Both the position numbers and the translations under genes were made by a program. From assembly GCF_002854065.1 (NCBI RefSeq), contig NZ_CP024153.1: a stretch of 64,000 nt of DNA; one strand, given 5' to 3'. Below the pieces are notes generated by a model. That model made no database searches. It was not told where the DNA came from and saw only the letters and a list, made by a program, of their open reading frames with translations. The first letter of the stretch is position 1, and every line of letters starts with the position of its first letter. Source of the DNA: Escherichia coli. GTDB taxonomy: Bacteria > Pseudomonadota > Gammaproteobacteria > Enterobacterales > Enterobacteriaceae. Of this stretch, positions 7,426 to 61,964 are shown piece after piece.

Positions 7426-7509
7426 TTTAAGACCCTTAATTGTTGGGATTTGGCTGCATAACGCCTGAAATAAGCCGTGCCGCGAAGCGGCATCGGCTTG
7501 ATTGAATTG

Positions 7510-10023: not shown

Positions 10024-10086
10024 TAACGCGCTTGCTGCTTGGATGCCCGAGGCATAGACTGTACAAAAAAACAGTCATAACAAGCC

Positions 10087-11588: not shown

Positions 11589-11628
11589 AGACAAAAGGCT
11601 GCCTCATCGCTAACTTTGCAACAGTGCC
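11589..11628 (+). repeat. Tandem second copy of the last 40 bp of IS26 (remnant of an earlier IS26)
   Basis: AGACAAAAGGCTGCCTCATCGCTAACTTTGCAACAGTGCC occurs twice in direct succession (11549-11588 and 11589-11628). Confidence 0.85.
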
Positions 11629-12137: not shown

Positions 12138-12211
12138 GGCTTGTTATGACTGTTTTTTTGTACAGTCTATGCCTCGGGCATCCAAGCAGCAAGCGCGTTA
12201 CGCCGTGGGTC

Positions 12212-12277
12212 GATGTTTGATGTTATGGAGCAGCAACGATGTTACGCAGCAGGGCAGTCGCCCTAAAACAAAGTTAG
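12212..12277 (+). other. attI1 recombination site of integron B (approximate)
   Basis: 5'-CS ...GCCCTAAAACAAAG/TTAG junction with the dfrA12 cassette. Confidence 0.5.
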
Positions 12278-12281
12278 CCAT

Positions 12282-16584: not shown

Positions 16585-16673
16585 GAACTATTGAAGTAAT
16601 CAATCAAATTTTATAGGCTGATAGCCAAGTAACAACCACCAATGATATGCCAGGTAAAATCAGGGGACGTAAA

Positions 16674-18110: not shown

Positions 18111-18527
18111 TCCCTTTCAAGGGGGCTGAAATCTGGTTATATGAAAGCATGCGGTAAGTGGTGTTTTAGCCCCAGTGGAGATGATGCTGTTTCTAGACTG
18201 AGTCGTAGTAAGCTAATAATAGTATTATAAATGAAGCCATGAGGGTATTTACAGGGCATATCTTATTAAGGGAACAACAGCAAAAACTGCTGCTATAAGA
18301 GGCTGCACCCAAAGTTCTTCAAGGTTCACATCATCGCTGCTGGGTCGATGCTGTTTCAGTTACGGGTCAATTTTCAATACCATTAGCTGTTCCTGTGACT
18401 ACGGTCATTACGCGCTGTCGACATCAATTTGTACAGCAAACAGTCTTAGCGTGGGATATTTAATGAGATGGTCACTCCCTCCTTCCCGGTACTATGCTGA
18501 GGATAGGCTTTCATTCGGAGAACTATC

Positions 18528-19532
18528 ATGGAAAACATTGCGCTCATTGGTATCGATCTGGGTAAAAACTCTTTCCATATTCATTGCCAAGATCGTCGCG
18601 GCAAGGCTGTTTACCGTAAAAAATTTACACGGCCAAAGTTAATCGAATTTTTGGCGACATGCCCCGCTACAACCATCGCAATGGAAGCCTGTGGTGGCTC
18701 TCACTTTATGGCACGCAAGTTGGAAGAGTTGGGGCATTTTCCTAAGCTGATATCACCACAATTTGTCCGTCCATTCGTTAAAAGTAACAAAAACGACTTT
18801 GTCGACGCCGAAGCTATTTGTGAAGCTGCATCGCGTCCGTCTATGCGTTTTGTACAGCCCAGAACTGAATCTCAGCAGGCAATGCGTGCGCTGCATCGTG
18901 TCCGTGAATCCCTGGTTCAGGATAAGGTAAAAACAACCAATCAGATGCATGCTTTTCTGCTGGAATTTGGCATCAGCGTTCCACGAGGAGCTGCCGTTAT
19001 TAGCCGACTGAGTACCCTTCTTGAGGACAATAGTTTGCCTCTATACCTCAGCCAGTTATTGCTGAAATTACAACAGCATTATCACTATCTTGTTGAGCAG
19101 ATTAAAGATTTGGAATCCCAGTTGAAACGAAAGTTGGACGAAGATGAGATTGGACAGCGCTTGCTGAGCATTCCCTGCGTCGGAACACTGACAGCGAGTA
19201 CTATTTCAACTGAGATTGGCGACGGGAAGCAGTACGCCAGCAGTCGTGACTTTGCGGCGGCAACAGGGCTAGTGCCTCGACAGTACAGCACGGGAGGTCG
19301 GACGACATTGCTGGGAATTAGTAAGCGAGGTAACAAAAAGATCCGAACTTTGTTGGTTCAATGTGCCAGGGTATTCATACAAAAACTGGAACACCAGTCT
19401 GGCAAATTGGCCGATTGGGTCAGGGATCTACTGTGTAGGAAAAGCAACTTTGTCGTCACTTGTGCTCTGGCAAACAAGCTGGCCAGAATAGCCTGGGCCC
19501 TAACGGCACGACAGCAAACTTATGTAGCATAA
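18528..19532 (+). CDS. IS110-family (DEDD) transposase/recombinase
   Basis: 334 aa MENIALIGIDLGKNSFHIHCQD... N-terminal RuvC-like DEDD character and C-terminal ...GISKRGNKKIRTLLVQCA... motif typical of the IS110 family. Confidence 0.85.
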   Translation: MENIALIGIDLGKNSFHIHCQDRRGKAVYRKKFTRPKLIEFLATCPATTIAMEACGGSHFMARKLEELGHFPKLISPQFVRPFVKSNKNDFVDAEAICEAASRPSMRFVQPRTESQQAMRALHRVRESLVQDKVKTTNQMHAFLLEFGISVPRGAAVISRLSTLLEDNSLPLYLSQLLLKLQQHYHYLVEQIKDLESQLKRKLDEDEIGQRLLSIPCVGTLTASTISTEIGDGKQYASSRDFAAATGLVPRQYSTGGRTTLLGISKRGNKKIRTLLVQCARVFIQKLEHQSGKLADWVRDLLCRKSNFVVTCALANKLARIAWALTARQQTYVA

Positions 19533-19807
19533 CGGCAGAAATACACCGGTTTAAAGAATCACTGATCTGGTTTTGCGAATACTGATATTGATGATACTAA
19601 CGGCCCACCGGCCTGTTGAGGAACCTGTAAAACGGAAAGGCTCATTGAAGCCGTATATTTTCTGGAGGTTCATCAGGCGCGGAACTCATCGAGGCGCGGG
19701 AATAAAATCCCATTCAGACGCCGGATAGATTCAAGCAAGCCAATTTATCGTCAAAATCGGTGTTGCAAAAACGGGAGTGACCATAGATTCCGTTTTCCAA
19801 GCGGACC

Positions 19808-19870
19808 CCGTGCTGTGTGGAAATCCGCCCACCTTGCCGGGCGCCGGTGCTGTGTGGAAATTCGCCCATC
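19808..19870. repeat. About 1.6 copies of the 37-bp repeat unit (inverted relative to the 56063-57150 array), just downstream of the truncated rep gene
   Basis: CCGTGCTGTGTGGAAATCCGCCCACCTTGCCGGGCGCCGGTGCTGTGTGGAAATTCGCCC is the reverse complement of the array unit. Confidence 0.75.
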
Positions 19871-19919
19871 TTCATGACAAAAATTTGTCAAATGACAGGC
19901 TCATGTGTGCTGATTTATG

Positions 19920-20601
19920 TCAGACGGGATTTTGCTTATCAATTATTGAGAACAGAAATTTTCCTGAATCATCAATACTATACTTAGCAAGTAAAGGTGT
20001 TTTCTCATTTATCTGCTTGAGAGCAGGATCAAGGAAAGATCGTTTCAACTCTGCCAAGTTCTTCTGTTGGGATTCCGGCAAAAGGAAACGGTCATTTAAC
20101 CAAGCATGAGTAGTAACCCATAAGCCTGAAGATTTGAATTGAGCAAGACTTTCATAAAGGCGGATCGTCCGTGGATTTCGAAGACTGCCACAATCGCGGA
20201 GCGAGTAGGTGGTGAACTGGTTCGTCAGGCCGTAAATGTACCGCAGGAGTTTATGGTTAAATTCGATTTCCCAGATACCACGAGCTGATCGGCTGCCAGC
20301 CTCTGTTAGCCAGGGGCGCGCGACGCAGTCAAAACTCCCTTCTTTCGGGTAAAAGATTACCGCAGAACGGCTTAACTCAAACACGCCTTCTTTAACATCC
20401 TTGATAGCCTGGTTACGGCTTACCTGAAAAATTTGCTGATAGTCAGCCACCTTTACTTTGAAAGTAGAGTCACCGAGTACAGCCATCTCATCATCATCTT
20501 CGCTTACTGAAGCTGTGAAATACGTCTGCATAAGACATAACCAGAGAACGCGCTTTGCTTTTAGCGAGAGGTAGTAAGCAGCTTCGGTAAGCTCGTTAGA
20601 C
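19920..20601 (-). pseudogene. Rep_3-family (RepE-like) replication initiator, N-terminally truncated by IS26
   Basis: ...NELTEAAYYLSLKAKRVLWL...IRLYESLAQF... parallels recalled F RepE ([20 protein letters not shown]...MRLYESLCQY); first 17 residues of the ORF come from the IS26 end. Confidence 0.75.
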
Positions 20602-21421
20602 GGCACTGTTGCAAAGTTAGCGATGAGGCAGCCTTTTGTCTTATTCAAAGGCCTTACATTTCAAAAACTCTGCTTACCAGGCGCATTTCGCCCAGGGGAT
20701 CACCATAATAAAATGCTGAGGCCTGGCCTTTGCGTAGTGCACGCATCACCTCAATACCTTTGATGGTGGCGTAAGCCGTCTTCATGGATTTAAATCCCAG
20801 CGTGGCGTTGATTATCCGTTTCAGTTTGCCATGATCGCATTCAATCACGTTGTTCCGGTACTTAATCTGTCGGTGTTCAACGTCAGACGGGCACCGGCCT
20901 TCGCGTTTGAGCAGAGCAAGCGCGCGACCATAGGCGGGCGCTTTATCCGTGTTGATGAATCGTGGGATCTGCCACTTCTTCACGTTGTTGAGGATTTTAC
21001 CCAGAAACCGGTATGCAGCTTTGCTGTTACGACGGGAGGAGAGATAAAAATCGACAGTGCGGCCCCGGCTGTCGACGGCCCGGTACAGATACGCCCAGCG
21101 GCCATTGACCTTCACGTAGGTTTCATCCATGTGCCACGGGCAAAGATCGGAAGGGTTACGCCAGTACCAGCGCAGCCGTTTTTCCATTTCAGGCGCATAA
21201 CGCTGAACCCAGCGGTAAATCGTGGAGTGATCGACATTCACTCCGCGTTCAGCCAGCATCTCCTGCAGCTCACGGTAACTGATGCCGTATTTGCAGTACC
21301 AGCGTACGGCCCACAGAATGATGTCACGCTGAAAATGCCGGCCTTTGAATGGGTTCATGTGCAGCTCCATCAGCAAAAGGGGATGATAAGTTTATCACCA
21401 CCGACTATTTGCAACAGTGCC
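20602..21421 (-). mobile_element. IS26 copy 5 (variant: Asn184 plus one synonymous change)
   Basis: 820 bp; ...KLKRIINATLGFKS... Confidence 0.95.
20654..21376 (-). CDS. tnpA: IS26 transposase Tnp26 (Asn184 form)
   Basis: 240-aa ORF; GGC to AAC at codon 184 relative to copies 1-3. Confidence 0.95.
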   Translation of the reverse strand: MLMELHMNPFKGRHFQRDIILWAVRWYCKYGISYRELQEMLAERGVNVDHSTIYRWVQRYAPEMEKRLRWYWRNPSDLCPWHMDETYVKVNGRWAYLYRAVDSRGRTVDFYLSSRRNSKAAYRFLGKILNNVKKWQIPRFINTDKAPAYGRALALLKREGRCPSDVEHRQIKYRNNVIECDHGKLKRIINATLGFKSMKTAYATIKGIEVMRALRKGQASAFYYGDPLGEMRLVSRVFEM

Positions 21422-28865: not shown

Positions 28866-31800
28866 CTAGGCGGGCAGATCCTCCTGGACCGGCTTCCTGC
28901 GGGTCACCAGTTTCCGTAGCGTCACGTAAAACACCGGCGTCAGGAACAGACCGAAGAGCGTCACGCCCAGCATCCCGGAGAACACCGTGATCCCGGTGAC
29001 GCCGCGGACTTCCGCCCCCGCGCCGTGGCCGAGGATCAGCGGAATGGTCCCGGCGATAAAGGCGATGGAGGTCATCACGATCGGGCGCAGACGCAGGCGG
29101 CATGCCTCCAGCGCCGCTTCCATGATGCCTTTCCCCTGGATCTCCAGCTCGCGGGCAAACTCGACGATCAGAATGGCGTTTTTACAGGCCAGGCCCATCA
29201 GGACCACCAGACCCACCTGCACGAAGACGTTGTTATCGCCCCCGGTCAGCCAGACGCCAAACAGCGCGGAGAGCATCGTCATCGGTACGATAAGGATCAC
29301 CGCCAGCGGCAGGGTCCAGCTTTCATACAGCGCGGCCAGTACGAGGAATGCCAGCAGCACCGCCACCGGGAAGACGATCAGCGCCGTGTTGCCCTGGGTG
29401 GCCTGCTGGAAGCTGAGATCCGTCCACTCAATATTCATCCCATTCGGCAGGATCTGCTTCGACAGCTCTTCCAGATGCGTCATCGCCTGCGAAGAAGAGA
29501 GGACCCGCGGATCGGCATCGCCAATCAGGTCCGCCGCCGGATAACCGTTGTAGCGGATCACCGGATCCGGCCCGTAGGTGGTACTGATATTCACCATACT
29601 GCCGATCGGTACCATTTCGCCCTGATTATTGCGGGTGCGCAGATTGGCGATATCTTCCACGCTCTCGCGGTATGGTCCGTCAGCCTGGGCCATCACGCGC
29701 CAGGTACGCCCGAACTGGTTAAAGTCATTGACATAAGACGAGCCGAGATAGGTCTGCAGCGTACCGAACAGATCGGTTAGCGATACCCCCTGCGCTTTCG
29801 CCTTATCGCGATCGACCTGCACGTCCAGCTGCGGCACGTTAGCCTGGTAAGTCGAGATCGGGAAGTGCATCCCCGGCGTCTGCATAATCGCCCCGGACAT
29901 CGCATTCACCGCGCTTTGCAGCGCGCCATAGCCCAGCCCTCCGCGATCCTGGATGTACAGGGAGTAGCCGGAACCCTGACCCAGACCTAAAATCGGCGGC
30001 GGCAGGATGGAAAAGCCAAAGCCCTGCTGGATTTGCGCGATTTTGGCGTTGATCTCCGCGTTAATTTCCGCCGCCGTGTGTTTGCGCTGGTCGAACGGTT
30101 TCAGGCCAAAAAAGACCGTCCCGGTATTCGGCGTGTTGGTGAACTGCAGCGCGTTAAGCCCCGGGAAAGCGACCGCATAGTCGACCCCTTCGGTATTCAT
30201 CCCGATCTCGCTCATTTTGCGGATCACCGCGTCGGTGCGCGCCAGCGACGACCCTTCCGGCATCTTCACGCCGCCAATGAGATACAGCTTATCCTGGGTG
30301 GGAATAAACCCGCCGGGGACGACTTTAAACATCACCCCAGCGGCGCAGAGCAGCAGCAGGTACACCGCAAACACTGCGCCACGGCGTCCAAGCGTTTTGC
30401 CTACCAGTCCCTGATAGCCGTTCGAGCTGCGCAGGAAAAAGCGGTTAAACGGACGGAAAATCCAGCCAAACAGGCGATCGATCAGCCGGGTAGGGAGGTC
30501 TTTCTTCGCGCCGTGCGGCTTTAACAGCAGGGCCGCCAGCGCCGGGGAGAGCGTCAGCGAGTTGATGGCCGAGATCACCGTCGAGATGGCGATGGTCACC
30601 GCGAACTGTTTGTAGAACTGGCCGGTGACCCCGGAGAGAAACGCCATCGGCACGAACACCGCACACAGCACCAGCGCAATGGCGATAATCGGCCCGGAGA
30701 CCTCACGCATCGCCTGATGCGCCGCGGCAAGCGGCGCAAGCCCCTCTTCGATATTACGCTCGACGTTCTCCACCACCACGATGGCGTCGTCCACCACGAT
30801 ACCGATAGCCAGTACCAGCCCGAACAGGCTCAGGGTATTCAGCGAGAAGCCCAGCAGATAGAGAATGCTGAAGGTACCCACCACCGATACCGGCACAGCG
30901 ATCAACGGGATAATCGACGCGCGCCAGGTCTGCAGGAACAGGATCACTACCAGCACCACCAGCACTACCGCCTCCAGCAGCGTCTGCACCACCGCGCGGA
31001 TGGAGTCGCGGACGAAAACCGTCGGGTCGTACGGCGCCGCCCATTGCATATCTTCCGGGAAGCGGGTGGCCAGCTCGGCCATTTTGGCGCGTACCGCGTT
31101 CGACAGATCGATGGCGTTAGCGCCGGGTGACTGGAAGATACCGATCCCGACCGCATCCTTATTGTTGAGCTGGGAGCGCAGCGCATAGCTACCGGAACCC
31201 ATCTCGATGCGCGCCACGTCGCGCAGGCGGACCAGCGAGCCATCCTGCGCCGTTTTCAGAATGATATTGCCAAACTCTTCTTCGGTATGCAGACGGCCCT
31301 GGGCGTTAATGGAGATCAGGAAATCGCTCTCCTGCGGCAGCGGCTCGGCGCCAAGCTGTCCGGCAGACACCTGGACGTTTTGCTCCTGCATCGCCGTCAC
31401 CACATCCGAGGCCGTCAGACCGCGGGCAGCGACCTTATTGGGATCCAGCCAGACGCGCATCGCATATTCACCGGAGCCAAAAATCTGGATCTGGCCGACG
31501 CCGGGCAGGCGCGCCAGCTCATCCTTCACTTTCAGCGTGGCGTAGTTGCGCATATACAGCGAGTCGTACTTCCCGCCGGGGGAGAACAGATGCACCACCA
31601 GGGTCAGCGTCGGAGACTGCTTCTGGGTGGTGATCCCCAGACGGCGTACATCCTCCGGCAGACGCGCTTCGGCCTGCGCGACGCGGTTCTGCACCTGAAC
31701 CTGCGCCTGATCCGGGTCGGTACCCGGGCGGAAGGTGACGGTGGTGACCAGCACGCCGTCGGAGCCGGCGACCGATTTCATGTACATCATGTTTTCAACG

Positions 31801-32018
31801 CCGTTGATCGCTTCCTCCAGCGGCGTCGCCACGGTCTCGGCAATCACTTTCGGGTTGGCGCCGGGATACTCCGCGCGCACCTGGACGCTCGGCGGGACGA
31901 CATCCGGATATTCGCTCACCGGCAGCAGTGGGATAGCGATTAACCCGGTGATAAAAATTAAAATCGACAGCACCGCGGCGAAAATCGGCCTGTCGATAAA
32001 AAAGCGGGAAAAGTCCAT
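28866..32018 (-). CDS. oqxB: OqxB RND multidrug efflux transporter
   Basis: 1050 aa MDFSRFFIDRPIFAAVLSILIFITGLIAIPLLPVSEYPDVVPPSVQVRAEYPGANPKV... Confidence 0.93.
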   Translation of the reverse strand: MDFSRFFIDRPIFAAVLSILIFITGLIAIPLLPVSEYPDVVPPSVQVRAEYPGANPKVIAETVATPLEEAINGVENMMYMKSVAGSDGVLVTTVTFRPGTDPDQAQVQVQNRVAQAEARLPEDVRRLGITTQKQSPTLTLVVHLFSPGGKYDSLYMRNYATLKVKDELARLPGVGQIQIFGSGEYAMRVWLDPNKVAARGLTASDVVTAMQEQNVQVSAGQLGAEPLPQESDFLISINAQGRLHTEEEFGNIILKTAQDGSLVRLRDVARIEMGSGSYALRSQLNNKDAVGIGIFQSPGANAIDLSNAVRAKMAELATRFPEDMQWAAPYDPTVFVRDSIRAVVQTLLEAVVLVVLVVILFLQTWRASIIPLIAVPVSVVGTFSILYLLGFSLNTLSLFGLVLAIGIVVDDAIVVVENVERNIEEGLAPLAAAHQAMREVSGPIIAIALVLCAVFVPMAFLSGVTGQFYKQFAVTIAISTVISAINSLTLSPALAALLLKPHGAKKDLPTRLIDRLFGWIFRPFNRFFLRSSNGYQGLVGKTLGRRGAVFAVYLLLLCAAGVMFKVVPGGFIPTQDKLYLIGGVKMPEGSSLARTDAVIRKMSEIGMNTEGVDYAVAFPGLNALQFTNTPNTGTVFFGLKPFDQRKHTAAEINAEINAKIAQIQQGFGFSILPPPILGLGQGSGYSLYIQDRGGLGYGALQSAVNAMSGAIMQTPGMHFPISTYQANVPQLDVQVDRDKAKAQGVSLTDLFGTLQTYLGSSYVNDFNQFGRTWRVMAQADGPYRESVEDIANLRTRNNQGEMVPIGSMVNISTTYGPDPVIRYNGYPAADLIGDADPRVLSSSQAMTHLEELSKQILPNGMNIEWTDLSFQQATQGNTALIVFPVAVLLAFLVLAALYESWTLPLAVILIVPMTMLSALFGVWLTGGDNNVFVQVGLVVLMGLACKNAILIVEFARELEIQGKGIMEAALEACRLRLRPIVMTSIAFIAGTIPLILGHGAGAEVRGVTGITVFSGMLGVTLFGLFLTPVFYVTLRKLVTRRKPVQEDLPA

Positions 32019-32041
32019 GTCTTGGATTCTCTGATTAGGGA

Positions 32042-33217
32042 TCAGTTAAGGGTGGCGCTGGAGGTCATGGCAACGGTTTTGGCGTTAACCGGCATACCCG
32101 GCATAAACACTTTTTGTAAGCCGTCGACGATGACGCTATCCCCAGGATTCAACCCCTTCTGAACGATGCGTAAACCGTCTGCCAGCCGCCCTGGGGTAAT
32201 GTCGCGGCGCTGTGCTTTACCATCTTTATCAACGATATAGACGTATTTACGATCCTGATCGGTCAGTACCGCTTTGTCGTCGATCAGCGTGGCTTTGAAC
32301 TCTGCGCTGCCCGGCAGACGCACGCGGGCAAACAGCCCCGGCGTGAACAGACGCTGCGAGTTATCCAGCAGCGCACGCATGCGGATGGTGCCGGTACTCG
32401 GCGTTAACTGATTATCGAGAAAATCCACTTTGCCCTGGTGGGGGTAACCCTCCTCGCCCACCAGGCCAATCTCCACCGGGAGCGCCTGATTATCGCTGGA
32501 CGCGCCTTGCCCGCGGCGGGCGAGGTTTTGATAGTGGAGGTAGGTTGACTCGTCGACGTCAAAGTAGACGTACACCGTCTTTTGCGAGACCAGGGTGGTG
32601 AGCACGCTGGCGGTGTCGCCCGCGGTGACCAGGTTACCGCTGGTGATCAGCGCCCGGCTGGCGCGGCCGTCAATAGGGGCGGTCACTTTGGTGAAGTCGA
32701 GGTTAAGCTGCGCGGCATCCACCGCCGCCTGCGCGGCGCGAATGTCGGCCTGCGCCTGAACCGCGGCTGACCGGCGCTGCTCCCACTCTTCACGGGAGAC
32801 GAGGTTGGTATGGACTAATTTATCGGTGCGGTTCGCCTCGCTTTGCGCGAGGCTGGCCTGCGTTTTGGCTCTTGCCAACGCCGCCTGCGCCTGCTCCAGC
32901 GCGGCGCGATAGGTTCTGTCATCTATCGTGAACAGCACCTGGCCCTTTTTTACCTCCTGGCCGTCAGTGTAATTCACTTTATCAATGTATCCCGAGACGC
33001 GAGGGCGAAGCTGAACGCTCTCCACCGCTTCAATGCGACCGTTAAAACTATCCCACTGACTGATCGACTTCACCAGCACCTTAGCGGCGCTGACCGTCGG
33101 GGCGGGAGGCGCAGCATTCTGTGCGACGCTGTCGTCGCAGCCGACGAGCAGAAAGGAGAGCATCATCGCGCCGAGCGCGGTCAGGTGAATGTTTCCCCAG
33201 GTTTTTTGCAGGCTCAT
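32042..33217 (-). CDS. oqxA: OqxA periplasmic adaptor (membrane fusion protein)
   Basis: 391 aa MSLQKTWGNIHLTALGAMMLSFLLVGCDDSVAQNAAPPAPTVSAAKVLVK... Confidence 0.93.
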   Translation of the reverse strand: MSLQKTWGNIHLTALGAMMLSFLLVGCDDSVAQNAAPPAPTVSAAKVLVKSISQWDSFNGRIEAVESVQLRPRVSGYIDKVNYTDGQEVKKGQVLFTIDDRTYRAALEQAQAALARAKTQASLAQSEANRTDKLVHTNLVSREEWEQRRSAAVQAQADIRAAQAAVDAAQLNLDFTKVTAPIDGRASRALITSGNLVTAGDTASVLTTLVSQKTVYVYFDVDESTYLHYQNLARRGQGASSDNQALPVEIGLVGEEGYPHQGKVDFLDNQLTPSTGTIRMRALLDNSQRLFTPGLFARVRLPGSAEFKATLIDDKAVLTDQDRKYVYIVDKDGKAQRRDITPGRLADGLRIVQKGLNPGDSVIVDGLQKVFMPGMPVNAKTVAMTSSATLN

Positions 33218-49633: not shown

Positions 49634-50243
49634 AACTCTCTTGTAACACAGGCTTTGTAATAATGTAAAATCCGTTACACGGCGTTGTATGTAATGTCAT
49701 TGTCTCTTGGACTCCTACAGTCCAAAACAACTTTGTGTTTTGTTGTCCAAAAACTTTTTGTTGCAGTGAGTTCTCACTGAGATAAATCTCGCCTTGAGCG
49801 TATCACATCAGCAGACTTCCTCTCAACCTTATGGACTTAACCCGGTCATTCTTCACGACAAAGAAAGTACGGCATTTTACATGACGAAGAGACGGTCTCA
49901 GTTTCACATGACCGGATAACGTTTTTAATGTACTTCATTATTACGGCACGGGTGTTCAAAGAGTATTTTTAAATATTAATCATTTTGTTTAACGGGTGGA
50001 TACCTACAAATTTTAACATTTACTAATCAAGATAGCAGTTATACGTACTGTCCCGGCAAAAATCCTGAGGTTTACAGATTCCCTCACCGTAACAGACCCG
50101 GTCATTCCCCCTGGTCCTCCGGAGAGTCTAGTACGAGTGATAAACGTGAATTCCTGTACCTGAAGTTCAGCCGCTGGCAGATAAGTCGTGAACTATAATT
50201 ACATTCAGTCAGATCCAAACACCTTTTCATCTGCATATATACT

Positions 50244-51239
50244 TTGTACATACCAGGAGATTACATGCAGGCACCCGGTATACCGGAGAATGAAGAACAG
50301 AGGCTGAAGTCCCTGTATATTACCGGCCTTCTTGATACCCGTGACGATGAGCGTTTTGAACGCCTGACGCGGCTGGCCCGTAAAGCCTTTCAGGTCCCGG
50401 TGGCCCTGATAAGCCTGCTGGATCGCGAGCGCCAGTGGCTCCTCGCCTGCCAGGGCGTCGGCGTGCGCGAAACCCCGCGTAACATCTCGTTCTGCGGGCA
50501 TGCCATTCTGCAGGAGGGGCCCTTCATTGTTCACGACGCAGCTGCTGATGAGCGGTTCCGTGACAATCCCCTGGTCACCGGTGAGCCCCACATCCGGTTC
50601 TACGCCGGCCAGCCGGTGAGCCTGCCCGACGGCACGGTGGCCGGCACGCTGTGCCTGATCCACACCGTTCCCCGCGCCTTCACGGATGATGACATTGCGT
50701 CCCTCCGGGATCTGGCCTGTATCGTGGAAGACGAATTCGAGGCCATCAGCATGGCCATGACGGACAGCCTGACGGGCATTCCCAACCGGCGCGGGTTTTA
50801 CCGCGCCGGCGAAAAACTCTTCCGCGCGATGAACCGGCAGGATGCGTCGTTCAGCCTCATCTATTTCGATCTGGACAGGTTCAAACCGGTGAACGATCTC
50901 TGGGGGCACGCAGAGGGAGACGAGGTGCTGAAGGTTTTTGCCGGCTTTTTACATCAGCACCTCGAACCGGGCGAAATAGCAGGCCGCCTCGGCGGGGATG
51001 AGTTTGCCGCCCTGATCCGGCGAAACGGGAACACGAGTTCTTTTCTGCACGCGCTGAGTGCCAGTTTGGATCATTACAATGACACCTCGGGCAAGCCCTA
51101 CAACATCAATTATTCCTTTGGCGAACTGATCAATAACGCAGACCAGTACGCGACGCTGGCGGAAATGATCGGCAAATGTGACGAAGTGATGTACCTGAAG
51201 AAAAAACGAAAGACCCTGTCGCGGAAAGCAGAACCGTGA
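50244..51239 (+). CDS. GAF-domain diguanylate cyclase (GGDEF)
   Basis: N-terminal GAF-like region; C-terminal ...RLGGDEFAAL... GGDEF active-site motif. Confidence 0.85.
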   Translation: MYIPGDYMQAPGIPENEEQRLKSLYITGLLDTRDDERFERLTRLARKAFQVPVALISLLDRERQWLLACQGVGVRETPRNISFCGHAILQEGPFIVHDAAADERFRDNPLVTGEPHIRFYAGQPVSLPDGTVAGTLCLIHTVPRAFTDDDIASLRDLACIVEDEFEAISMAMTDSLTGIPNRRGFYRAGEKLFRAMNRQDASFSLIYFDLDRFKPVNDLWGHAEGDEVLKVFAGFLHQHLEPGEIAGRLGGDEFAALIRRNGNTSSFLHALSASLDHYNDTSGKPYNINYSFGELINNADQYATLAEMIGKCDEVMYLKKKRKTLSRKAEP

Positions 51240-51808
51240 CGTTCTCCTTCCCGGCTGATCCCCTGCCCCGGGGTTCAGCCGGACGGCAGGAACAATATAT
51301 TTAACCTCATGGCGCATAAAGTCATTTATATTTGCTCATGGCGCAATAATCCTCTCATCGCAACAATTACTCGTTTTTTGTGTCCATGCTGCAAAAATTC
51401 CTCTCTTCCTCTCCCGAGATCCGAAAAAAGGTAGTCCCGGATCTCTGCGAACCCCACCGGCGCGCAGCGGCCCGACAACACAAGATGTAGCGGTGTTTCC
51501 AGCTGATAGTGACGCCATATGTTGTGTCCCTCTCCTGCCCCGTGACCCGGCGCGCAGCATCAGAAAACAGTGCTTCGCTTACTTCCTGACCGTGATAAAC
51601 TTCCGGAAACTTCGCTAAATGTGAAAAGTCGGATCTGCCGGAAACGGTCATTCGGTAATTTAACAGCGTTGCTATATGGCTGCTTATTATCAGTCAAAAA
51701 AATAATTACAGTATGGGAAATTCATCCAGGTGACAGATGCAGGATTGTGCTCAGCTAATTATACCTTGCGTCATAATTACACTTAGTGACTATTTATTAG
51801 GAGGCTAA

Positions 51809-52105
51809 ATGCACGCATCAATGGTTCATGTCTGGGAGTATCTGACACGTTGTGGTCATAAATTTCTATGGCTAAAAATTAACCCTCTACCTCCAGGATA
51901 TACCGGTTCGGTATACAGAGCGCAGTTTGAAATTTACAGCGCGTCGGGCCGTATTCTGGTCACGCTTGATGTGCACAGACAGCAATGGGTGTGTTCAGCA
52001 AACAATCCTCGCCGTGAACCTGCTGATAAAAACGGGGTCATGCTTGATAGCGGTATACCTCTGGATAGAAACCTCGCATCACATTATGCAAAACAGGGGT
52101 ACTGA
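51809..52105 (+). CDS. Hypothetical small protein (98 aa)
   Basis: Strong RBS (AGGAGG) 7 bp upstream of ATG; no recognisable motif. Confidence 0.5.
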   Translation: MHASMVHVWEYLTRCGHKFLWLKINPLPPGYTGSVYRAQFEIYSASGRILVTLDVHRQQWVCSANNPRREPADKNGVMLDSGIPLDRNLASHYAKQGY

Positions 52106-52169
52106 ATGAATCTAACCCTGGTACAAGCACTGGCAGATGCCTGGCGGGATTTCTCAATAAGGATCAAAC

Positions 52170-52841
52170 ATGGCTGACTGGTTTATTGCGACTGAGGGCG
52201 TGAAGGTGGTGAAGGACAGTGCCAGCCTGTGGCCGCAGATCGTTACGGCTATTTCCTCTGCCGGCGCAGCCCTGGTGGGTGTTGCTCTCACACACCGTTT
52301 TACCCGCAGGCGTGAAGAAGCTACTGCTGCACGTAAACGTTACGATGAATTGTACTTTATATCTACCGAGCTAGTTTTTCTGCTGGAGCGTTTTGCACAA
52401 CGCTGTGTTTATTCTGCTAATGAATCAGGGGAATATGACCAAGATGGACGTATTAGGATTGAGTATTCTTTACCTGAAATCAATTTCGAGTCCATTACTG
52501 GGGACTGGCGTTCTCTGCCACCAGGATTGATGTACAGACTTGCTGAATTGCCAGTCATCTGCAGGGAAGCCGCGAGTTCTATAAGTGCGGCGTTCAATGA
52601 AGATACTCCCTTCGATGGATCGTATGGAATTTTCGAACTTAACAGGCAGTCTGCAAGACTCGGATTAAAAGCAATACGTTTATCCCGTTGGCTACGTCAG
52701 CTATGCGATATGCCTGGGGACAGGTTGTCTGACGACCGTTGGTCGGCATGGAGTGTTTTGTATCGGAAGCGCTGGGAGCATATTAGGAATAATAACAATG
52801 TTCACCGCCGATATAAACGGTTGCCTGATGTTACTGAGTAG
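52170..52841 (+). CDS. Hypothetical membrane-anchored protein (223 aa, one N-terminal TM helix)
   Basis: RBS (AGGA) upstream; hydrophobic segment LWPQIVTAISSAGAALVGVAL; ends 19 bp before the recombinase gene. Confidence 0.55.
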   Translation: MADWFIATEGVKVVKDSASLWPQIVTAISSAGAALVGVALTHRFTRRREEATAARKRYDELYFISTELVFLLERFAQRCVYSANESGEYDQDGRIRIEYSLPEINFESITGDWRSLPPGLMYRLAELPVICREAASSISAAFNEDTPFDGSYGIFELNRQSARLGLKAIRLSRWLRQLCDMPGDRLSDDRWSAWSVLYRKRWEHIRNNNNVHRRYKRLPDVTE

Positions 52842-52860
52842 ATGGCTCAGGAGTTAGACT

Positions 52861-53649
52861 ATGAATAATAATTTCCCGGCAGGTATCAGGGATAACACAC
52901 GGAACACCTCGATGAATCTGCCAGTAGCCATCGATTACCCTGCCGCTCTCGCCCTGCGTCAGATGGCGCTCGTGCAGGATGAACTCCCGAAATACCTGCT
53001 GGCGCCGGAAGTCAGCGCCCTGCTCCATTACGTGCCGGATCTTCACCGCAAGATGCTGCTGGCGACGCTGTGGAACACCGGCGCGCGCATTAATGAAGCG
53101 CTCGCGCTGACCCGGGGGGATTTTTCGCTGGCGCCGCCGTATCCTTTCGTGCAGCTGGCCACGCTCAAGCAGCGCACCGAGAAAGCGGCCAGGACGGCAG
53201 GTCGTGCCCCCGCAGGCAGTCAGGTCCATCGTCTGGTTCCCCTTTCCGATCACCACTACGTCAGTCAGCTGCAGATGATGGTGGCCACCCTGAAAATTCC
53301 CCTCGAAAGACGAAACAAACGCACCGGCAGAATGGAGAAGGCGCGTATCTGGGAGATCACAGACCGAACCGTCCGCACCTGGCTTAGCGAAGCGGTGGAA
53401 GCCGCAGCGGCCGACGGGGTGACGTTCTCAGTACCGGTGACCCCCCATACGTTCCGTCACTCCTACGCGATGCACATGCTGTATGCCGGCATACCACTGA
53501 AGGTTTTGCAGAGCCTGATGGGCCACAAATCGATTAGCTCGACGGAAGTCTATACGAAGGTGTTTGCACTTGATGTTGCTGCGCGGCATCGAGTTCAGTT
53601 TCAGATGCCCGAAGCGGATGCGGTAGCCATGCTGAAAGGGAATATTTAA
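52861..53649 (+). CDS. Tyrosine site-specific recombinase (phage-integrase/XerD-like, possibly ResD-type resolvase)
   Basis: C-terminal ...HTFRHSYAMHML...GHKSISSTEVYTKV... catalytic R-H-R-Y signature. Confidence 0.85.
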   Translation: MNNNFPAGIRDNTRNTSMNLPVAIDYPAALALRQMALVQDELPKYLLAPEVSALLHYVPDLHRKMLLATLWNTGARINEALALTRGDFSLAPPYPFVQLATLKQRTEKAARTAGRAPAGSQVHRLVPLSDHHYVSQLQMMVATLKIPLERRNKRTGRMEKARIWEITDRTVRTWLSEAVEAAAADGVTFSVPVTPHTFRHSYAMHMLYAGIPLKVLQSLMGHKSISSTEVYTKVFALDVAARHRVQFQMPEADAVAMLKGNI

Positions 53650-53706
53650 GTACTTAGGAGAATGATGCTGGCGAACGTCATGCTCGCCGGTGAGGTCTGT
53701 CAGAAG

Positions 53707-53898
53707 TTATCTGGACCAGCTGACGGGAATATCTGCTCTGTATTCCTCATACTGCTCATAGATCGCATGCTGAAGCATCGTAATACGTTCTGACAACCTG
53801 TTGGCGTCCGACATATGCCGCCATTCCCCCTCAATAGTGGTTTTCTGTCCATCCGGGAGATTGAGCGTGATCAATACCTTTGTATCACGAATAATCAC
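53707..53898 (-). CDS. Hypothetical small protein (63 aa)
   Basis: ORF only; no motif recognised. Confidence 0.3.
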   Translation of the reverse strand: MIIRDTKVLITLNLPDGQKTTIEGEWRHMSDANRLSERITMLQHAIYEQYEEYRADIPVSWSR

Positions 53899-53942
53899 CC
53901 CGTCAGTGAAAGAATTAAGACCACTGAATCGCCACGGATAAT

Positions 53943-54755
53943 CTAGACACTTCCGAGCCGTTGATAATACTGGTTTTCATATTCTGTCGGTGACATCTGT
54001 TCGCTAGAACCATGCCGACGCTTACTGTTATAAAACATTTCGATGTAATCAAAAATATCACTGCGGGCTTCTTCCCGCGTTCCGTAGATCTTTTTCTTTA
54101 TCCGTTCGCGTTTCAACAACTGGAAAAAGCTTTCTGCAACCGCATTATCATGGCAGTTACCGCGACGGCTCATGCTGCCCTCCAGGCCGTGTGATTTCAG
54201 GAACGACTGCCATTCATGGCTTGTGTACTGACTGCCCTGATCCGAATGAACCAGCACCTGTTTTTGGGGATTACGCCGCCATACAGCCATCAGCAGTGCG
54301 TTCAGGACAATGTCTTTTGTCATCCGGGACTGCATGGACCAGCCGATAATTTTGTGTGAGAACAGATCAACAACCACGGCAAGATACAGCCAGCCTTCGT
54401 GGGTCCTTATGTAGGTTATGTCCGTTACCCAACGCTCATCCGGAGCATCCGGATTGAACTGTCGCTGAAGCCTGTTGGGCGACACGATACTGGCCTCGCC
54501 TTTACGAGCCCGCGGGCTCCGGTATCCGACCTGAGCCTTTATCCCGATACGTTTCATCAGTCGCCAGACTCTGTTCACTCCGCACTGTTGCCCGCTGTCC
54601 CGCAGATCTAAATGGATTTTGCGATAACCATAGACGCATCCCGATTCCAGCCAGAACTGTTTAATCTGTCCTGTCAGTCTCAGGTCTGCCTGATGGCGTT
54701 GTGAATGCGGCTGCTGAAGCCAGGCGTAAAAACCACTGGGATGAACATCCAGCAC
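53943..54755 (-). pseudogene. IS3-family transposase OrfB (DDE integrase domain); upstream orfA region interrupted by IS30
   Basis: 270 aa with ...WVTDITYIRT...LAVVVDLFSHKIIGWSM...HSDQGSQYTS... IS3-family DDE motifs. Confidence 0.8.
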
Positions 54756-54841
54756 CCGACAGAGCAGGCGAACAGGCCAGCAACAGGTGTTTTCACGGAT
54801 AAAGGCGTACCTCAGTCGGACAGCTTTGCGAAGTACGCCGC

Positions 54842-56062
54842 TGTAGATTCAATCTGTCAATGCAACACCCCTTTCAATTATCTCTTTCGGTGTTTTGAAC
54901 TTCAGTGTCTTTCTCGGTCTGTTGTTTAGCTGAGCAGCAACCAGATCTAGTTCATGTTGAGTATATTGGGCAAGACATGTCTTTTTAGGAAAGTACTGCC
55001 GAATTAGCCCATTTGTGTTCTCATTTGTTCCCCGCTGCCAAGGACTCTGAGGATCGCAGAAGTAAACTTTAACGCCGGTGCTGACAGTAAATTCTAGATG
55101 TCTGGCCAGTTCCATTCCTCTGTCCCATGTCAGTGATTTTCTGAGTTCTGACGGTAAACTCAGGAATTTGTCGGTAAGAGCCTGATTTACTGAGACAGAA
55201 TCTTTGCCCCTGAGTCTAAGGATGATCGTATAACGTGATTTTCGGTCTACAAGTGTGGCTATATGAGAGTTTTTTGTACCTGAGACTAAATCGCCCTCCC
55301 AATGCCCCAGAGAGCGTCTGTTATCGATATTTCGGGAACGTTCGTGAATTGGTGTTCCGTTCACTATGTTAATCGTACCTCTTTCGCCTTTGCGGGTATG
55401 ACGCCTGCCATGGCGAAGGCTATGCGACCGTCGCAGATGCTGTATATTCAGGTGGTGTAGCGCTTCACGGCTACGAAAGTACAGCGTTTTATAAATTGTC
55501 TCAGGTGATATTCGCAGCGTTTTTTGACGTGGTTTTGTTCGCCTTAACCATCCTGATATTTGCTCTGGAGACCATTTCATCTCCAGCTTTTCCAGAACAA
55601 GCTTTCGCAATGGTAAATTTTGATCCAGTAAGCACGGTTTTGGCCTTTTCGCCATTCTGTTGGCTCGGTTATTAGCATCAACAGCTTTGTAATAGCGTCT
55701 GCCCCGATTACGCTGAACTTCACGTGAGATCGTCGAAGGACTGCGATTCAGCGCAGTAGCTATCGCACGAATGCTCATTTTGGCTGACAAACCAGCTCGT
55801 ATCTCCTCGCGCTCAGACAGTGTCAGGTGAGCTACAGCCCGCTTACGCTCATGGGGTTTTATGCCGCCAGTATCCCTTAACATAGTGAAGATCGTTCCGG
55901 GTTTTGAACCCAGGATATTCGCTATTTCACTGAAGCCTGTTCCGTTCTTCCATAGTTCAAAAACAGAGGCTTTTTCCTCTGCTGTAAATGTTCATCTCAT
56001 TCAAAAAACCTCCGCAACCCCATGTTTTCACATAACTGTTGCGTTGACCAATTGAATCTACA
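54842..56062 (-). mobile_element. IS30 (1221 bp)
   Basis: Terminal repeats TGTAGATTCAAT...; no matching 2-bp target duplication (GC left, GG right). Confidence 0.9.
54849..56000 (-). pseudogene. IS30 transposase with TGA at codon 3 (ATG AGA TGA); 344-aa ORF resumes at internal Met
   Basis: Recalled IS30 Tnp begins MRRTFTAEEK...; window reads M R stop T F T A E E K in the same frame. Confidence 0.7.
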
Positions 56063-57150
56063 GGGCGGATTTCCACACAGCACCGGCGCCCGGCAAGGTG
56101 GGCCGATTTCCACACAGCACCGGTGCGCGGCAAGGTGGGCCGATTTCCACACAGCACCGGCGCCCGGCAAGGTGGGCTGATTCCCACACGGCACCGGCGC
56201 CCGGCAAGGTGGGCGGATTTCCACACAGCACCGGCGCGCGGCAAGGTGGGCTGATTCCCACACGGCACCGGCGCCCGGTAAGGTGGGCGGATTTCCACAC
56301 GGCACCGGCGCCCGGTAAGGTGGGCGGATTTCCACACAGCACCGGCGCCCGGCAAGGTGGGCTGATTCCCACACGGCACCGGCGTCCGGTAAGGTGGGCG
56401 GATTTCCACACAGCACCGGCGCGCGGCAAGGTGGGCCGATTTCCACACGGCACCGGCGCCCGGCAAGGTGGGCGGATTTCCACACGGCACCGGCGCCCGG
56501 TAAGGTGGGCTGATTCCCACACGGCACCGGCGCCCGGCAAGGTGGGCTGATTCCCACACGGCACCGGCGCCCGGTAAGGTGGGCGGATTTCCACACAGCA
56601 CCGGCGCGCGGCAAGGTGGGCTGATTCCCACACGGCACCGGCGTCCGGTAAGGTGGGCGGATTTCCACACAGCACCGGCGCGCGGCAAGGTGGGCTGATT
56701 CCCACACGGCACCGGCGCCCGGTAAGGTGGGCGGATTTCCACACGGCACCGGCGCCCGGCAAGGTGGGCTGATTCCCACACGGCACCGGCGCCCGGCAAG
56801 GTGGGCTGATTCCCACACGGCACCGGCGCCCGGTAAGGTGGGCTGATTCCCACACAGCACCGGCGCCCGGCAAGGTGGGCTGATTCCCACACGGCACCGG
56901 CGCCCGGCAAAGTGGGCGGATTTCCACACAGCACCGGCGCCCGGTAAGGTGGGCGGATTTCCACACAGCACCGGCGCCCGGCAAGGTGGGCTGATTCCCA
57001 CACGGCACCGGCGCCCGGTAAGGTGGGCGGATTTCCACACAGCACCGGCGCGCGGCAAGGTGGGCCGATTTCCACACAGCACCGGCGCCCGGCAAGGTGG
57101 GCGGATTTCCACACAGCACCGGCGCGCGGCAAGGTGGGCCGATTCCCATA
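56063..57150. repeat. Tandem array of ~29 copies of a 37-bp GC-rich repeat (consensus GGGCNGATTYCCACACRGCACCGGYGCSCGGYAAGGT)
   Basis: Period and copy variants read directly; begins exactly at the IS30 end. Confidence 0.9.
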
Positions 57151-57774
57151 TCGACATGTATGTAGCTTGTGTTATCCGTGGATTGTGCAGCTCAGCTGGT
57201 CGTATGGCGGAGTGTCCCCCGTAACCGGCCGCGTGCGGCCGCTAACGCGCAGTACGGCCCCCCCCGTGGGGGACGTGCGGCAGCTGCGTGGCGGTGAGCG
57301 GGATTAGGGCTTTGCAGCTACCGTGTTAAGTTCCCTGGTGTCGCTGAAAGAGTTGATGAACATCCCCCTAAGCGTCAGCAGCAAGCTGCCGCCGCTAAGT
57401 CCCCGGAAATCACGCCCTTTACGTCGTAAACGCCGTAAAGCCCGCTCACCGGGGTTAAAAGGGATTACTTTGACTTCTTCATTGCTGTTCGCGAGTTAAG
57501 GCTAATCAGGGCAGGGGGTAGGGTGGCAGAATTTATAGCCCGGCAACGGGCTACGCCGGGCTTTCGGCGCCATTTTACAACACAGACACATGTAACCTCA
57601 TCTGGCGCCTCCATGCCGCTGACGCGGCATTCAGAAGCTTCCCAATGCTGTAGGTTTTAACATCTGCTTTATGTCAGAAGCGGATGGTTCAGAAGCCAGC
57701 AGTTTCCAATAACAGATATAGTATCGAACCGGATACTCATGATTTTTGGGTGACGCTGCCAACTTACTGATTTA

Positions 57775-58080
57775 GTGTATGATGGTGTTTTTGAGGTGCT
57801 CCAGTGGCTTCTGTTTCTATCAGCTGTCCCTCCTGTTCAGCTACTGACCGGGGTGGTGCGTAACGGCAAAAGCACTGCCGGACATCAGCGCTATCTCTGC
57901 TCTCACTGCCGTAAAACATGGCAACTGCAGTTCACTTACACCGCTTCTCAACCCGGTACGCACCAGAAAATCATTGATATGGCCATGAATGGCGTTGGAT
58001 GCCGGGCAACTGCCCGCATTATGGGCGTTAGCCTCAACACGATTTTACGTCACTTAAAAAACTCAGGCCGCAGTCGGTAA
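57775..58080 (+). pseudogene. insA: IS1 insA with frameshift near the 5' end (canonical GTG-start frame stops after 19 codons)
   Basis: Window has CTGACCGGGG where canonical IS1 is recalled as CTGACGGGG; ORF track protein has a non-canonical 27-aa N-terminus lacking the first CxxC of the zinc finger. Confidence 0.7.
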
Positions 58081-58124
58081 CCTCGCGCATACAGCCGGGC
58101 AGTGACGTCATCGTCTGCGCGGAA

Positions 58125-58502
58125 ATGGACGAACAGTGGGGATACGTCGGGGCTAAATCGCGCCAGCGCTGGCTGTTTTACGCGTATGACAGGCTCCGGA
58201 AGACGGTTGATGCGCACGTATTCGGTGAACGCACTATGGCGACGCTGGGGCGTCTTATGAGCCTGCTGTCACCCTTTGACGTGGTGATATGGATGACGGA
58301 TGGCTGGCCGCTATATGAATCCCGCCTGAAGGGAAAGCTGCACGTAATCAGCAAGCGATATACGCAGCGAATTGAGCGGCATAACCTGAATCTGAGGCAG
58401 CACCTGGCACGGCTGGGACGGAAGTCGCTGTCGTTCTCAAAATCGGTGGAGCTGCATGACAAAGTCATCGGGCATTATCTGAACATAAAACACTATCAAT
58501 AA
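58125..58502 (+). CDS. insB: IS1 InsB reading frame (normally expressed as InsAB' by frameshifting)
   Basis: 125 aa [22 protein letters not shown]... Confidence 0.85.
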
Positions 58503-59366
<864 letters not shown>

Positions 59367-59536
59367 CCACTTCAAACATGCTTCGTTCAGATCCCAACAG
59401 AGTTTTCACCATCGCCTGTAACAGCCGTCCTGCTGCGTGATTACTCCGCTCAACGGGTTGCTGGCGACAAGTCAATACCTGTTCGTGACAGGTATTGATT
59501 GAACCGTTGTCCCTAACTAATAATGTGCCGACGATG

Positions 59537-59750
59537 CAGGTGGGACCGTGGTCCCAGGGAGATAACCTGACCGGCGATACAGGTGGGACCGTGGTCCCAG
59601 GGAGATAACCTGACCGGCGATACAGGTGGGACCGTGGTCCCAGGGAGATAACCTGACCGGCGATACAGGTGGGACCGTGGTCCCAGGGAGATAACCTGAG
59701 CGGCGATACAGATGGGACCGTGGTCCCAGAGAGAATATTCAGGCCAGTTA
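59537..59750. repeat. sopC: sopC-like centromere: about 5 tandem 43-bp repeats each containing the inverted repeat TGGGACCGTGGTCCCA
   Basis: Read directly; immediately downstream of sopB as in F plasmid. Confidence 0.85.
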
Positions 59751-59817: not shown

Positions 59818-60789
59818 TCAGACTCCTGGTTTCTCAAGCTCCTTAAGAATGGCTTCTATTTTCTCTATACACTCCGCAGGAATGCGGGACCTATCCAGGT
59901 TAAGCACCATTTTATCGCCCTTATACAATGCTGTTGCCCCTGGAGCAAACTGATGACGTGAGCTCAGATTAACTCTTGATGCGGGGGATTGTTTCAGTAC
60001 GGATGTTAAAAGACTAATGACCTCTTCAGCTTCAAAGATTAGTCCCGCTTTCTTCTGATCGTGGAGAGTCTCAGCCTGCTGCTTCAGTAATTCTTCTTTA
60101 TCTGCAAAAGCCTTCTGAAGGGCTTCACCTGACCGGGCAGACAGTTCTCCAGGATGTGCAAACAGGGCAACAACGGATTTAGGCAATTTGGCCGTATTGA
60201 TACAGCGGGTAATGATCTTACGAGAGATGTTTTCCGCATCGGCAAGCGCAGAAATATTTCCTGCAAACTCATTCTGCAGCCGGCTTGTATAACGCAGGCC
60301 ACGTTCATAAGCACTCGTCGGCCGATAATCGTTACCCAGTCGGGACAATGCAGCCATCTGCTCATCGTCCAGTTCACCAACCAGAACGCGATAATCACTT
60401 TCCGTCAGGATTGCGGCTTTACGGCGACGGCTGCCGTCGGCAATTTCTATGACATCAGAAACCCGGCGGCCGAAAGCTGGAGTCTGCTGACCGGTCAGTA
60501 AAAATGAAGGAATGAGATCATCCAGAGCATCTTCGGTAAGTAGTTCCTGATCGCGCTCATTGCCTGACCATACGCGTGAAGCGCTCTCAACAGAGTCTCC
60601 CCGGAGCACCTCAAGGGTAAATTTTACTTCCCGTCCACATACCGGAAGAGAGATTGCATTACCGCGGGCCATAGCACCCACGCGCGCAATTAATGAATCC
60701 ACCATCGGCGCGGCCGGCGCCGGTGATGAAGTATCTTCAGTCGATTGAGTATGTGTGGTATGTCTTGGAATGACAGGAGCACGCTTCAT
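59818..60789 (-). CDS. sopB: SopB/ParB centromere-binding partition protein
   Basis: 323-aa ORF immediately downstream of sopA and upstream of sopC repeats. Confidence 0.88.
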
Positions 60790-61964
60790 TATCTAATCTC
60801 CCAGCGTGGTTTAATCAGACGATCAAAAATCTCATTGCAAACAGGCTCCCAGATAGAGAGGGCATTACGCCAGGCACCGGTTGAAGAACGTTGATCAATA
60901 GCCTGTTCAAAAACGGTTCTCATACGGATCTGACCTTTACCGACTTCATCCGTTTCGCGCACAACATTTTTAAGGACCATGCTTCCCCAGGCATCCCGAA
61001 TTTGTTCTTCCATCCACGGGGACTGTGAGCCATTATTATTACTGTATTTGGTAAGCAGAATACGGACATCTGGCTCGAAGCCTTTAAGATCCACGTTCTT
61101 AAGCAGGTCACGAAGCATATCGAAAAACTGCAGTGCGGAGGTGTAGTCGAACAGCTCTGCCGGAGTAGGGACAATCAGAACATCAGCAGCGCATACAACA
61201 TTTATCGTACCGATACCAAGGTTAGGTGCACTGTCGATAACTATCACGTCATAATCATGAGCGACAGTTTCAATGGCCAGACGGAGCATCAGGTGCGGGT
61301 CAGCAGGTAATTTGCCTTCGTCAAATTTCCCCATCAGCTCGGTTTCAATGCGGTGCAGTGCCAGACAGGACGGGATGATATCAAGGCCAGGCCAGCAGGT
61401 GGGCTTTATAGCGTAGCTGGCGTCATCCTTTTCCCCAAGATAAAAGGGTAGGAGAGTGTCCTCAGCATGAATATGAAGATCGGGCACCCATCCGTGATAC
61501 ATAGAAGCAGTTCCCTGTGGGTCATTGCCTTCAACAAGCAGAACACGGAGTCCTTTCAGAGCAAGATCCTGAGCCAGGTGAACGGATACTGAGGTTTTGT
61601 AAACACCACCTTTGTGAGCTGCAACGCCAATCACCGGCGGAAACGCATCTTCAGCACGGCGCAGTCGTGTACCAAATACATCCCGCATGTGATTGATTTG
61701 TTCGATGGTATAACCAACGCGTTGCTCAACTCTCCCACGGGTTTCCATATCAGGGTGCGGCAGCCGGCCAGCTTTCTCGGCATCCCTGATAGCCTGAGAT
61801 GACACGCCAACTAAATCTGCCGCTTCACCAATCCTCCAGCGCCGGGTTATTTTCCGGGCTTCCGGACTGTCATCATTAAACTGTGCAATGGCGATTGCTT
61901 TCGTCATTTCATGACCAGCACTTATGCACTGGTTGAGTGTATCCATGAGTCCCATACTGAACAT
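60789..61964 (-). CDS. sopA: SopA/ParA type Ia partition ATPase (F-plasmid-like)
   Basis: Near-identical to recalled F SopA: ...[55 protein letters not shown]...; Walker A KGGVYKTS. Confidence 0.9.

Follow-up and report, generated by a model that had tools for sequence, protein, structure and literature searches.

A nonsense-mutated IS30 copy that probably marks the edge of an IS30-end-directed deletion reaching into an IncN-type iteron array

The IS30 copy described here lies in a 64,000-nucleotide stretch of an Escherichia coli contig (NZ_CP024153.1), hereafter called the window. It is a non-autonomous element which probably marks the edge of an adjacent deletion directed by one of its own ends. 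Comparison with related plasmids reveals three states of the same locus: an intact IS30 inserted in an IS3-family element, the same insertion with a transposase gene closed at its third codon, and the window, in which the left end of the mutated copy abuts an array of IncN-type iterons. These states, as well as a breakpoint located exactly at the tip of the inverted repeat, can be read directly from the aligned sequences, and the order in which they are placed below rests on parsimony, with a single origin of the nonsense allele. The features on which this reconstruction is built are collected in Table 1.

Table 1. Features of the IS30 locus in the window, and the blocks aligned with the undeleted plasmid p3_W5-6 (L005).
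Feature	Window position	Strand	Counterpart in L005	Basis or remark
Complete IS30, 1221 bp	54842..56062	-		Ends and alignment to reference copies
IS30 left inverted repeat (IRL), at the 5' end of the transposase gene	56037..56062	-		Deletion breakpoint at its tip, 56062
IS30 right inverted repeat (IRR)	54842..54867	-		Still adjoins the original target, an IS3-family element
Transposase frame of 383 codons and a stop codon, with a break at codon 3	54849..56000	-		Translation; domain search
TGA nonsense codon 3	55992..55994	-		References have CGA; C-to-T at IS30 position 69
Residual 344-aa ORF from Met40	54849..55883	-		Retains HTH_38 and the rve/DDE core; no upstream Shine-Dalgarno sequence
Remnant of the IS3-family element, original IS30 target	53925..54841	-		Comprises one end, orfB and the part immediately 3' of the A7G frameshift motif
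Novel joint, IRL tip to iteron unit 4	56061..56064	.	Loss of 3101-9000	1-bp (G) ambiguity
29.4 x 37-bp IncN-type iteron array, deletion target	56063..57148	+		Array search; comparison with IncN plasmid L006
Aligned block left of the joint	52963-56062		1-3100	Identical
Aligned block right of the joint	56063-59691		9001-12629	5 mismatches in 3,629 bp

The element itself is a known insertion sequence. It has the length of about 1221 bp and the inverted repeats of about 26 bp starting with TGTAGATTCAAT which are expected of IS30, and its 27-nt terminal inverted repeats (54841-54867 and 56037-56063) show 89% complementarity. Throughout the 64-kb window the end motif TGTAGATTCAAT occurs at the two ends of this element only, and the same scan found no second IS30 elsewhere in the window. 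The copy is identical, with 0 differences, to those of plasmids p3_W5-6 (CP032995.1) and pG3X16-2-3 (CP038140.1; L001), while its sole difference from the copy of pYPE3-92k-tetX4 (CP041453.1; L003) is at IS30 position 69. Compared with the E. coli K-12-derived copy of strain DH1 (L004), which is located next to perR and annotated as 'IS30-like element IS30 family transposase', 3 of the 1221 positions differ (99.75% identity). Both elements have the same length and the same inverted repeats, and they share 1218 bases and a 383-codon frame with HTH_38 and rve/DDE core domains; the window copy departs from the K-12 one by a TGA in place of CGA at codon 3, along with one amino-acid change, V261L. 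A search for structured RNAs in and around the element (53500-58000) returned no Rfam match.

IS30 is expected to carry a single uninterrupted gene for a 383-aa DDE transposase (HTH_38 and rve; NCBIfam NF033563). Here both domains are present and the gene is interrupted, the minus-strand frame running from 56000 to 54849 as ATG AGA TGA ACA TTT and so on, that is M-R-stop-T-F-T-A-E-E-K. The initial annotation, which gave MRR as the start of the canonical protein and placed a nonsense codon at position 3 (55994-55992), is borne out on both counts, as IS30 position 69 is a C in the K-12-derived and pYPE3-92k-tetX4 copies, giving CGA and thus arginine. The alignment to reference IS30 which it proposed was run, and the possibility that the reference also carries TGA is ruled out, since the K-12-derived and sibling plasmid copies have CGA. 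A sequencing error at 55992-55994 is likewise ruled out by the occurrence of the identical allele in 80 independently deposited records. In CP032995.1, the identical copy is annotated by RefSeq as an incomplete IS30 transposase pseudogene, and the pseudogene allele is already public and annotated in dozens of plasmids.

The distribution of this allele was determined with a 61-bp probe centred on the position-69 mutation, the alleles being separated by identity band. TGA was found in 50 of the 1072 matching PLSDB plasmid records and in 30 of the 3908 matching E. coli RefSeq records, a share of 5% among plasmids and of under 1% among E. coli records. The remaining probe-matching records are at least one base off (95-99% identity), with CGA in the reference copies checked. 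Plasmids carrying TGA were found in E. coli, Salmonella, Klebsiella and Shigella. A second, 98-bp probe, spanning position 69 together with the original IRL-side flank, was searched in PLSDB and E. coli RefSeq and gave exactly 50 and 30 perfect matches, respectively, which are the totals of TGA carriers; among these records the allele was seen at no site other than the original one. Every other known TGA copy keeps the original site and the original flank. TGA is a derived minority allele and serves as a lineage marker.

The initial annotation also noted that a 344-aa ORF resumes at an internal methionine, which is indeed the case (Met40, 54849-55883), and that its product would lack the N-terminal helix-turn-helix, which holds only in part. 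By Pfam, HTH_38 spans residues 58-98 of the full protein and the rve core residues 229-320, and both are kept in the shorter ORF (at 19-59 and 190-281 in its own numbering), which reaches 277 bits against the IS30 transposase model of NCBIfam. What is lost is residues 1-39, which hold a weak, sub-threshold HTH_40 match at 13-39. In IS30 the second helix-turn-helix binds the inverted repeats, and the first one mainly affects hot-spot targeting. The native start is preceded by the Shine-Dalgarno sequence GGAGG and Met40 by none, so that the 344-aa product is probably poorly made; no alternative in-frame ATG, GTG or TTG start was found in codons 4-39.

The history of the insertion can be followed in the sibling plasmids. 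In pG3X16-2-3, pYPE3-92k-tetX4 and p3_W5-6, IS30 is flanked as ...AAAAAAAGCCGC / IS30 / GCGGCGTACTTC..., which corresponds to a normal 2-bp GC duplication within one contiguous IS3-family element of which both halves are present. The window copy has GC to its left and GG to its right, and no 2-bp target-site duplication is therefore present, as had been reported in the initial annotation, in contrast to the GC/GC of the siblings. The comparison with related plasmids that it suggested was carried out and located the same IS30 copy, GC duplication included, inside the contiguous IS3-family element. The three siblings have the insertion site and the IRR-side flank in common with the window, from which they differ by their duplication and by the 5.9 kb retained between IS30 and the iteron array; pYPE3-92k-tetX4 differs furthermore by its intact CGA allele. 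On the strength of these relatives, the target duplication was lost secondarily in the window, from which the other 229 bp of the IS3-family element are also gone. The IRR-side junction which the window has kept is common to 242 PLSDB plasmids, some with an intact transposase gene and some with TGA, and since intact and TGA alleles share this junction, the C-to-T change would have arisen in place, after insertion, in a sub-lineage.

At its original target site, IS30 had entered the IS3-family element a few bases 3' of the A7G frameshift motif; this site reads TTAAAAAAAGCC[GC]GGCG and has a palindromic centre, GCCGCGGC (window 54830-54841; L005 3101-3124). K-12 offers a parallel in IS911A::IS30A of DH1, where IS30 is inserted at the homologous IS3-family position, a few bases 3' of an A6G/A7G motif (TTAAAAAAGGCT[AC]CGCG). 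The two cases are distinguished by the host insertion sequence, the flanks aligning around the motif only, and by the duplicated dinucleotide, AC in K-12 and GC here; the K-12 copy keeps its AC/AC duplication and the window copy has none. In addition, both halves of the interrupted IS911 remain in K-12, while the window keeps one part of its IS3-family element. Among 1151 plasmid records with this IS30 end, 911 aligned over at least 80% of a probe that takes in the target flank, which would fit a hot spot used repeatedly or else a composite that has spread widely. Rebuilt without IS30, the IS3-family element measures about 1147 bp and its own ends lack matching direct repeats (CAC versus TTT), and it may itself have been rearranged or internally deleted.

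On the other side of IS30, the window leaves the arrangement of its relatives at a single point. Positions 56062 and 56063 of the window correspond to positions 3100 and 9001 of the p3_W5-6 locus, so that exactly 5,900 bp are missing compared with this plasmid. One endpoint is the first base outside the IRL and the other falls between iteron units 3 and 4. In p3_W5-6, the lost segment comprises 229 bp of the IS3-family element, a 93-aa ORF, an IS1-rclA-IS1 unit, the IS66-family element ISEc22, the 48-bp leader of the array and three 37-bp units. Its unique parts (rclA, ISEc22 and the 93-aa ORF) are absent from the 64-kb window, which contains matches to IS1 and iteron sequences only. The initial annotation had considered a deletion or an inversion: the deletion stands, extending over 5,900 bp from the IRL tip, and inversion is unsupported and ruled out for the window by the lack of both a second IS30 and the unique missing parts in the 64 kb. 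The converse scenario, in which the ancestor was arranged like the window and the siblings gained the 5.9 kb by insertion, is ruled out by the presence in the latter of both IS3-family halves, the GC duplication and the natural array leader. With its endpoint at the tip of an inverted repeat and IS30 retained unchanged next to it, the deletion has the form of a transpositional adjacent deletion, and an undeleted progenitor arrangement with the same copy at the same site is found in 50 PLSDB and 30 E. coli RefSeq records. The junction between IS30 and the iteron is private to the window sequence and was found nowhere else in PLSDB, E. coli RefSeq, JGI metagenome contigs or GTDB genomes.

The array reached by the deletion belongs to the IncN type. 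The window encodes a Rep3-family initiator RepA (19920-20648) which is 99.6% identical to RepA of the IncN-typed plasmid L006, and in L006 repA is followed by the same 48-bp leader and by 15.7 x 37-bp units. It has been reported that iteron I of F33/IncN plasmids consists of 30-31 x 37-bp repeats (PMC6052338). On the IS30 side of the array, the siblings have three more units and the 48-bp leader. The number and sequence of units vary among relatives (23.5 in pG3X16-2-3 and 32.4 in p3_W5-6), and apart from the three deleted units the window array is identical to those of the TGA lineage. Indeed, the array and its right flank (56063-57700) are 100% identical to 15 E. coli plasmid records, of which all that could be cross-checked are TGA carriers; CGA carriers show 97.7-99.4% identity. 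The deletion target, CGGTAAGGT/GGGCGGATTTCC with the slash at the point of joining, is by eye not palindromic, unlike the original GCCGCGGC site.

In both the window and its siblings this large array has no adjacent repA, ISEc22 separating it in the siblings from the preceding sequence, and such an orphan array may still titrate IncN RepA and exert incompatibility. A remnant of the IncN replicon is found in opposite orientation at 16647-20648 of the window, with repA (19920-20648, minus strand), the 48-bp leader and 1.57 iteron units (19807-19872), the latter cut by a sequence resembling a Tn3-family terminal repeat (GGGGTCCGCTTGGAAAACGG...). Beyond these units are an IS110-family transposase gene (18528-19532) and a glutathione synthase gene (16647-18110), and the whole region corresponds to the repA-iteron II-gshB module described with an inserted IS5075 (PMC6052338).

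The most economical history, as judged from these comparisons, would comprise insertion, nonsense mutation and deletion, in that order. The starting point would be a plasmid backbone with sil, an integrase gene and IncN iterons, in which an active IS30 entered an IS3-family element and duplicated GC at the target. In a sub-lineage, the C-to-T change at position 69 would then have converted CGA to TGA, abolishing normal transposase synthesis and leaving both inverted repeats intact. Finally, the left end of the dead element would have been joined between iteron units 3 and 4, with loss of the 5,900 bp and of the target duplication. The proposal that the element caused a rearrangement rather than a simple insertion thus needs to be divided: the element would have arrived by simple insertion with a 2-bp duplication, and the deletion would be a later, second event which followed the nonsense mutation. 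The placement of the window within the TGA sub-lineage is drawn from its identity to p3_W5-6 left of the joint, its near-identity right of the joint and the identity of its array to those of TGA carriers. Siblings with TGA and siblings with CGA do not differ in the left flank (51416-54841), which is thus uninformative for phylogeny, and the useful signal came from the iteron array. An alternative order, with the deletion first and an independent, identical C-to-T change, conflicts with the identity of the iteron array to that of TGA carriers.

Because the deletion post-dates the nonsense mutation, the transposase would have been supplied in trans or, less likely, by read-through. IS30 has been shown to transpose by a copy-out-paste-in mechanism, in which IR-IR junction intermediates (a minicircle or an IS dimer) attack target sites, leading to insertions with 2-bp duplications or to intramolecular deletions and inversions (Olasz et al., 2022, PMC9333248). 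In the same study, transpositional deletions began at the edge of an inverted repeat, non-transpositional ones ended away from the inverted repeats, and substrates devoid of transposase were rearranged by enzyme from other plasmids or chromosomal copies (PMC9333248). The window deletion resembles those described there in beginning at the tip of an inverted repeat, in retaining the insertion sequence and in having lost the target duplication, and it is a known type of rearrangement with exactly the transpositional signature. It differs from these systems (PMC9333248) in that it occurred on a natural plasmid whose single resident copy is a nonsense mutant, and in that its target is an iteron repeat instead of a characterised hot spot; here, we infer the dimer intermediate. 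We thus propose that IS30 transposase would have joined the element end to the iteron through the published intramolecular dimer pathway, with the enzyme most likely supplied in trans by a further IS30 of the host cell. The ends of the window copy, which differs from the intact sibling copy at position 69 only, are competent substrates. Of 5426 complete E. coli genomes, 3515 contain IS30, and a transposase donor is usually available. Counting against supply in trans, the TGA allele was seen at no other site in PLSDB and E. coli RefSeq and so gives no independent sign of having been mobilised in this way, and against the adjacent deletion as a whole counts the fact that the junction is known from one sequence only, with no independent replication.

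Homologous recombination could generate the same gross structure if a second IS30 had inserted between iteron units 3 and 4 and a RecA-dependent crossover with the resident direct repeat had deleted the 5.9 kb, leaving a hybrid element. By textbook reasoning, an insertion sequence without target duplication arises in this way, and IS30 is common in the hosts of these plasmids. We nevertheless consider it unlikely on account of the position of the nonsense codon. TGA lies only 69 bp from the array-side (IRL) end, which the hybrid takes from the incoming copy, and this incoming copy must have been active and hence CGA, unless the crossover took place within the terminal 68 of 1221 bp. Moreover, an IS30 joined to this iteron sequence, as the recombination would require, is on record neither in PLSDB and E. 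coli RefSeq nor in metagenome contigs and GTDB genomes.

It is also quite unlikely that the nonsense mutant catalysed its own end-directed deletion, either by read-through of UGA or with the 344-aa protein started at Met40. The domains retained by the residual ORF and its score on the IS30 model would be compatible with a functional enzyme, in E. coli the UGA stop is comparatively leaky when an A follows it, which counts for read-through, and a target which is not obviously a palindromic hot spot (by inspection) might fit altered targeting. Against this, Met40 lacks the Shine-Dalgarno sequence that the native start has, codons 4 to 39 offer no substitute start, and the 80 other records of the TGA allele show no movement or rearrangement at the IS30 ends. 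If the element did act in cis, the first N-terminal helix-turn-helix would be dispensable for the cleavage and joining of IS30 ends in vivo, and its loss would relax target choice, an iteron being used instead of a palindromic hot spot.

An assembly artefact, in which an IS30 end and an internal point of the array were wrongly joined and the true plasmid has the arrangement of p3_W5-6, might be suspected from a junction seen in no other public sequence searched, with repeats on both sides of the joint and the rest 99.9-100% identical to undeleted plasmids. It is very improbable, as the joint is base-perfect, shares 1 bp and contains no Ns, graph and overlap assemblers do not join on 1 bp, and the unique content of the 5.9 kb is nowhere in the 64-kb window. 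Finally, a transposase-independent illegitimate deletion, by slippage or end-joining, that reached the IS30 tip by coincidence is extremely unlikely: the 1-bp (G) microhomology at the joint is what chance predicts, a nearby 4-bp match (GCGG) was by inspection left unused, there is very little chance that an endpoint falls within 1 bp of the tip of an inverted repeat when the plasmid measures tens of kb, and deletions of this kind end away from the inverted repeats (Olasz et al., PMC9333248).

Several other features of the window were observed. At 50001-51415, in the region of a diguanylate-cyclase gene, about 73 clustered substitutions distinguish the window from pG3X16-2-3 and pYPE3-92k-tetX4, which agree with each other, and identity is complete from 51416 on; this looks like a recombination tract or an allele replacement. 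A 43-bp unit repeated 4.8 times in tandem occupies 59528-59734, with an IS3-family (IS911-like) fragment on one side and partition genes of the sopAB type (59818-61964) on the other. The alignment blocks of the window and p3_W5-6 overlap over this repeat, which hints at a difference in copy number, and it is possibly a partition or iteron site. The first 34 kb is a heavily IS26-structured resistance region, in which seven complete genes for the IS26 transposase, 99.3-100% identical, and a single 90-bp fragment are found (2044-34241). Two ORFs of 1050 and 391 aa (28866-33217) are, we presume, probably an RND efflux pair.

For annotation, the consequences are that this IS30 should be recorded as a pseudogene-bearing, non-autonomous copy and that the sequence to its right is a deletion scar and not an insertion target. 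For the history of the plasmid, a widespread backbone, which carries sil and often tet(X4), has here lost rclA, ISEc22, two copies of IS1 and three IncN iterons through the deletion. The main value of the finding lies in annotation and in the reconstruction of this history. Its more general interest is modest and stems from a deletion that would post-date the loss of the transposase, providing a natural example of a dead insertion sequence used as substrate: a 'dead' element with intact ends would remain a substrate for rearrangement wherever an active copy is present.
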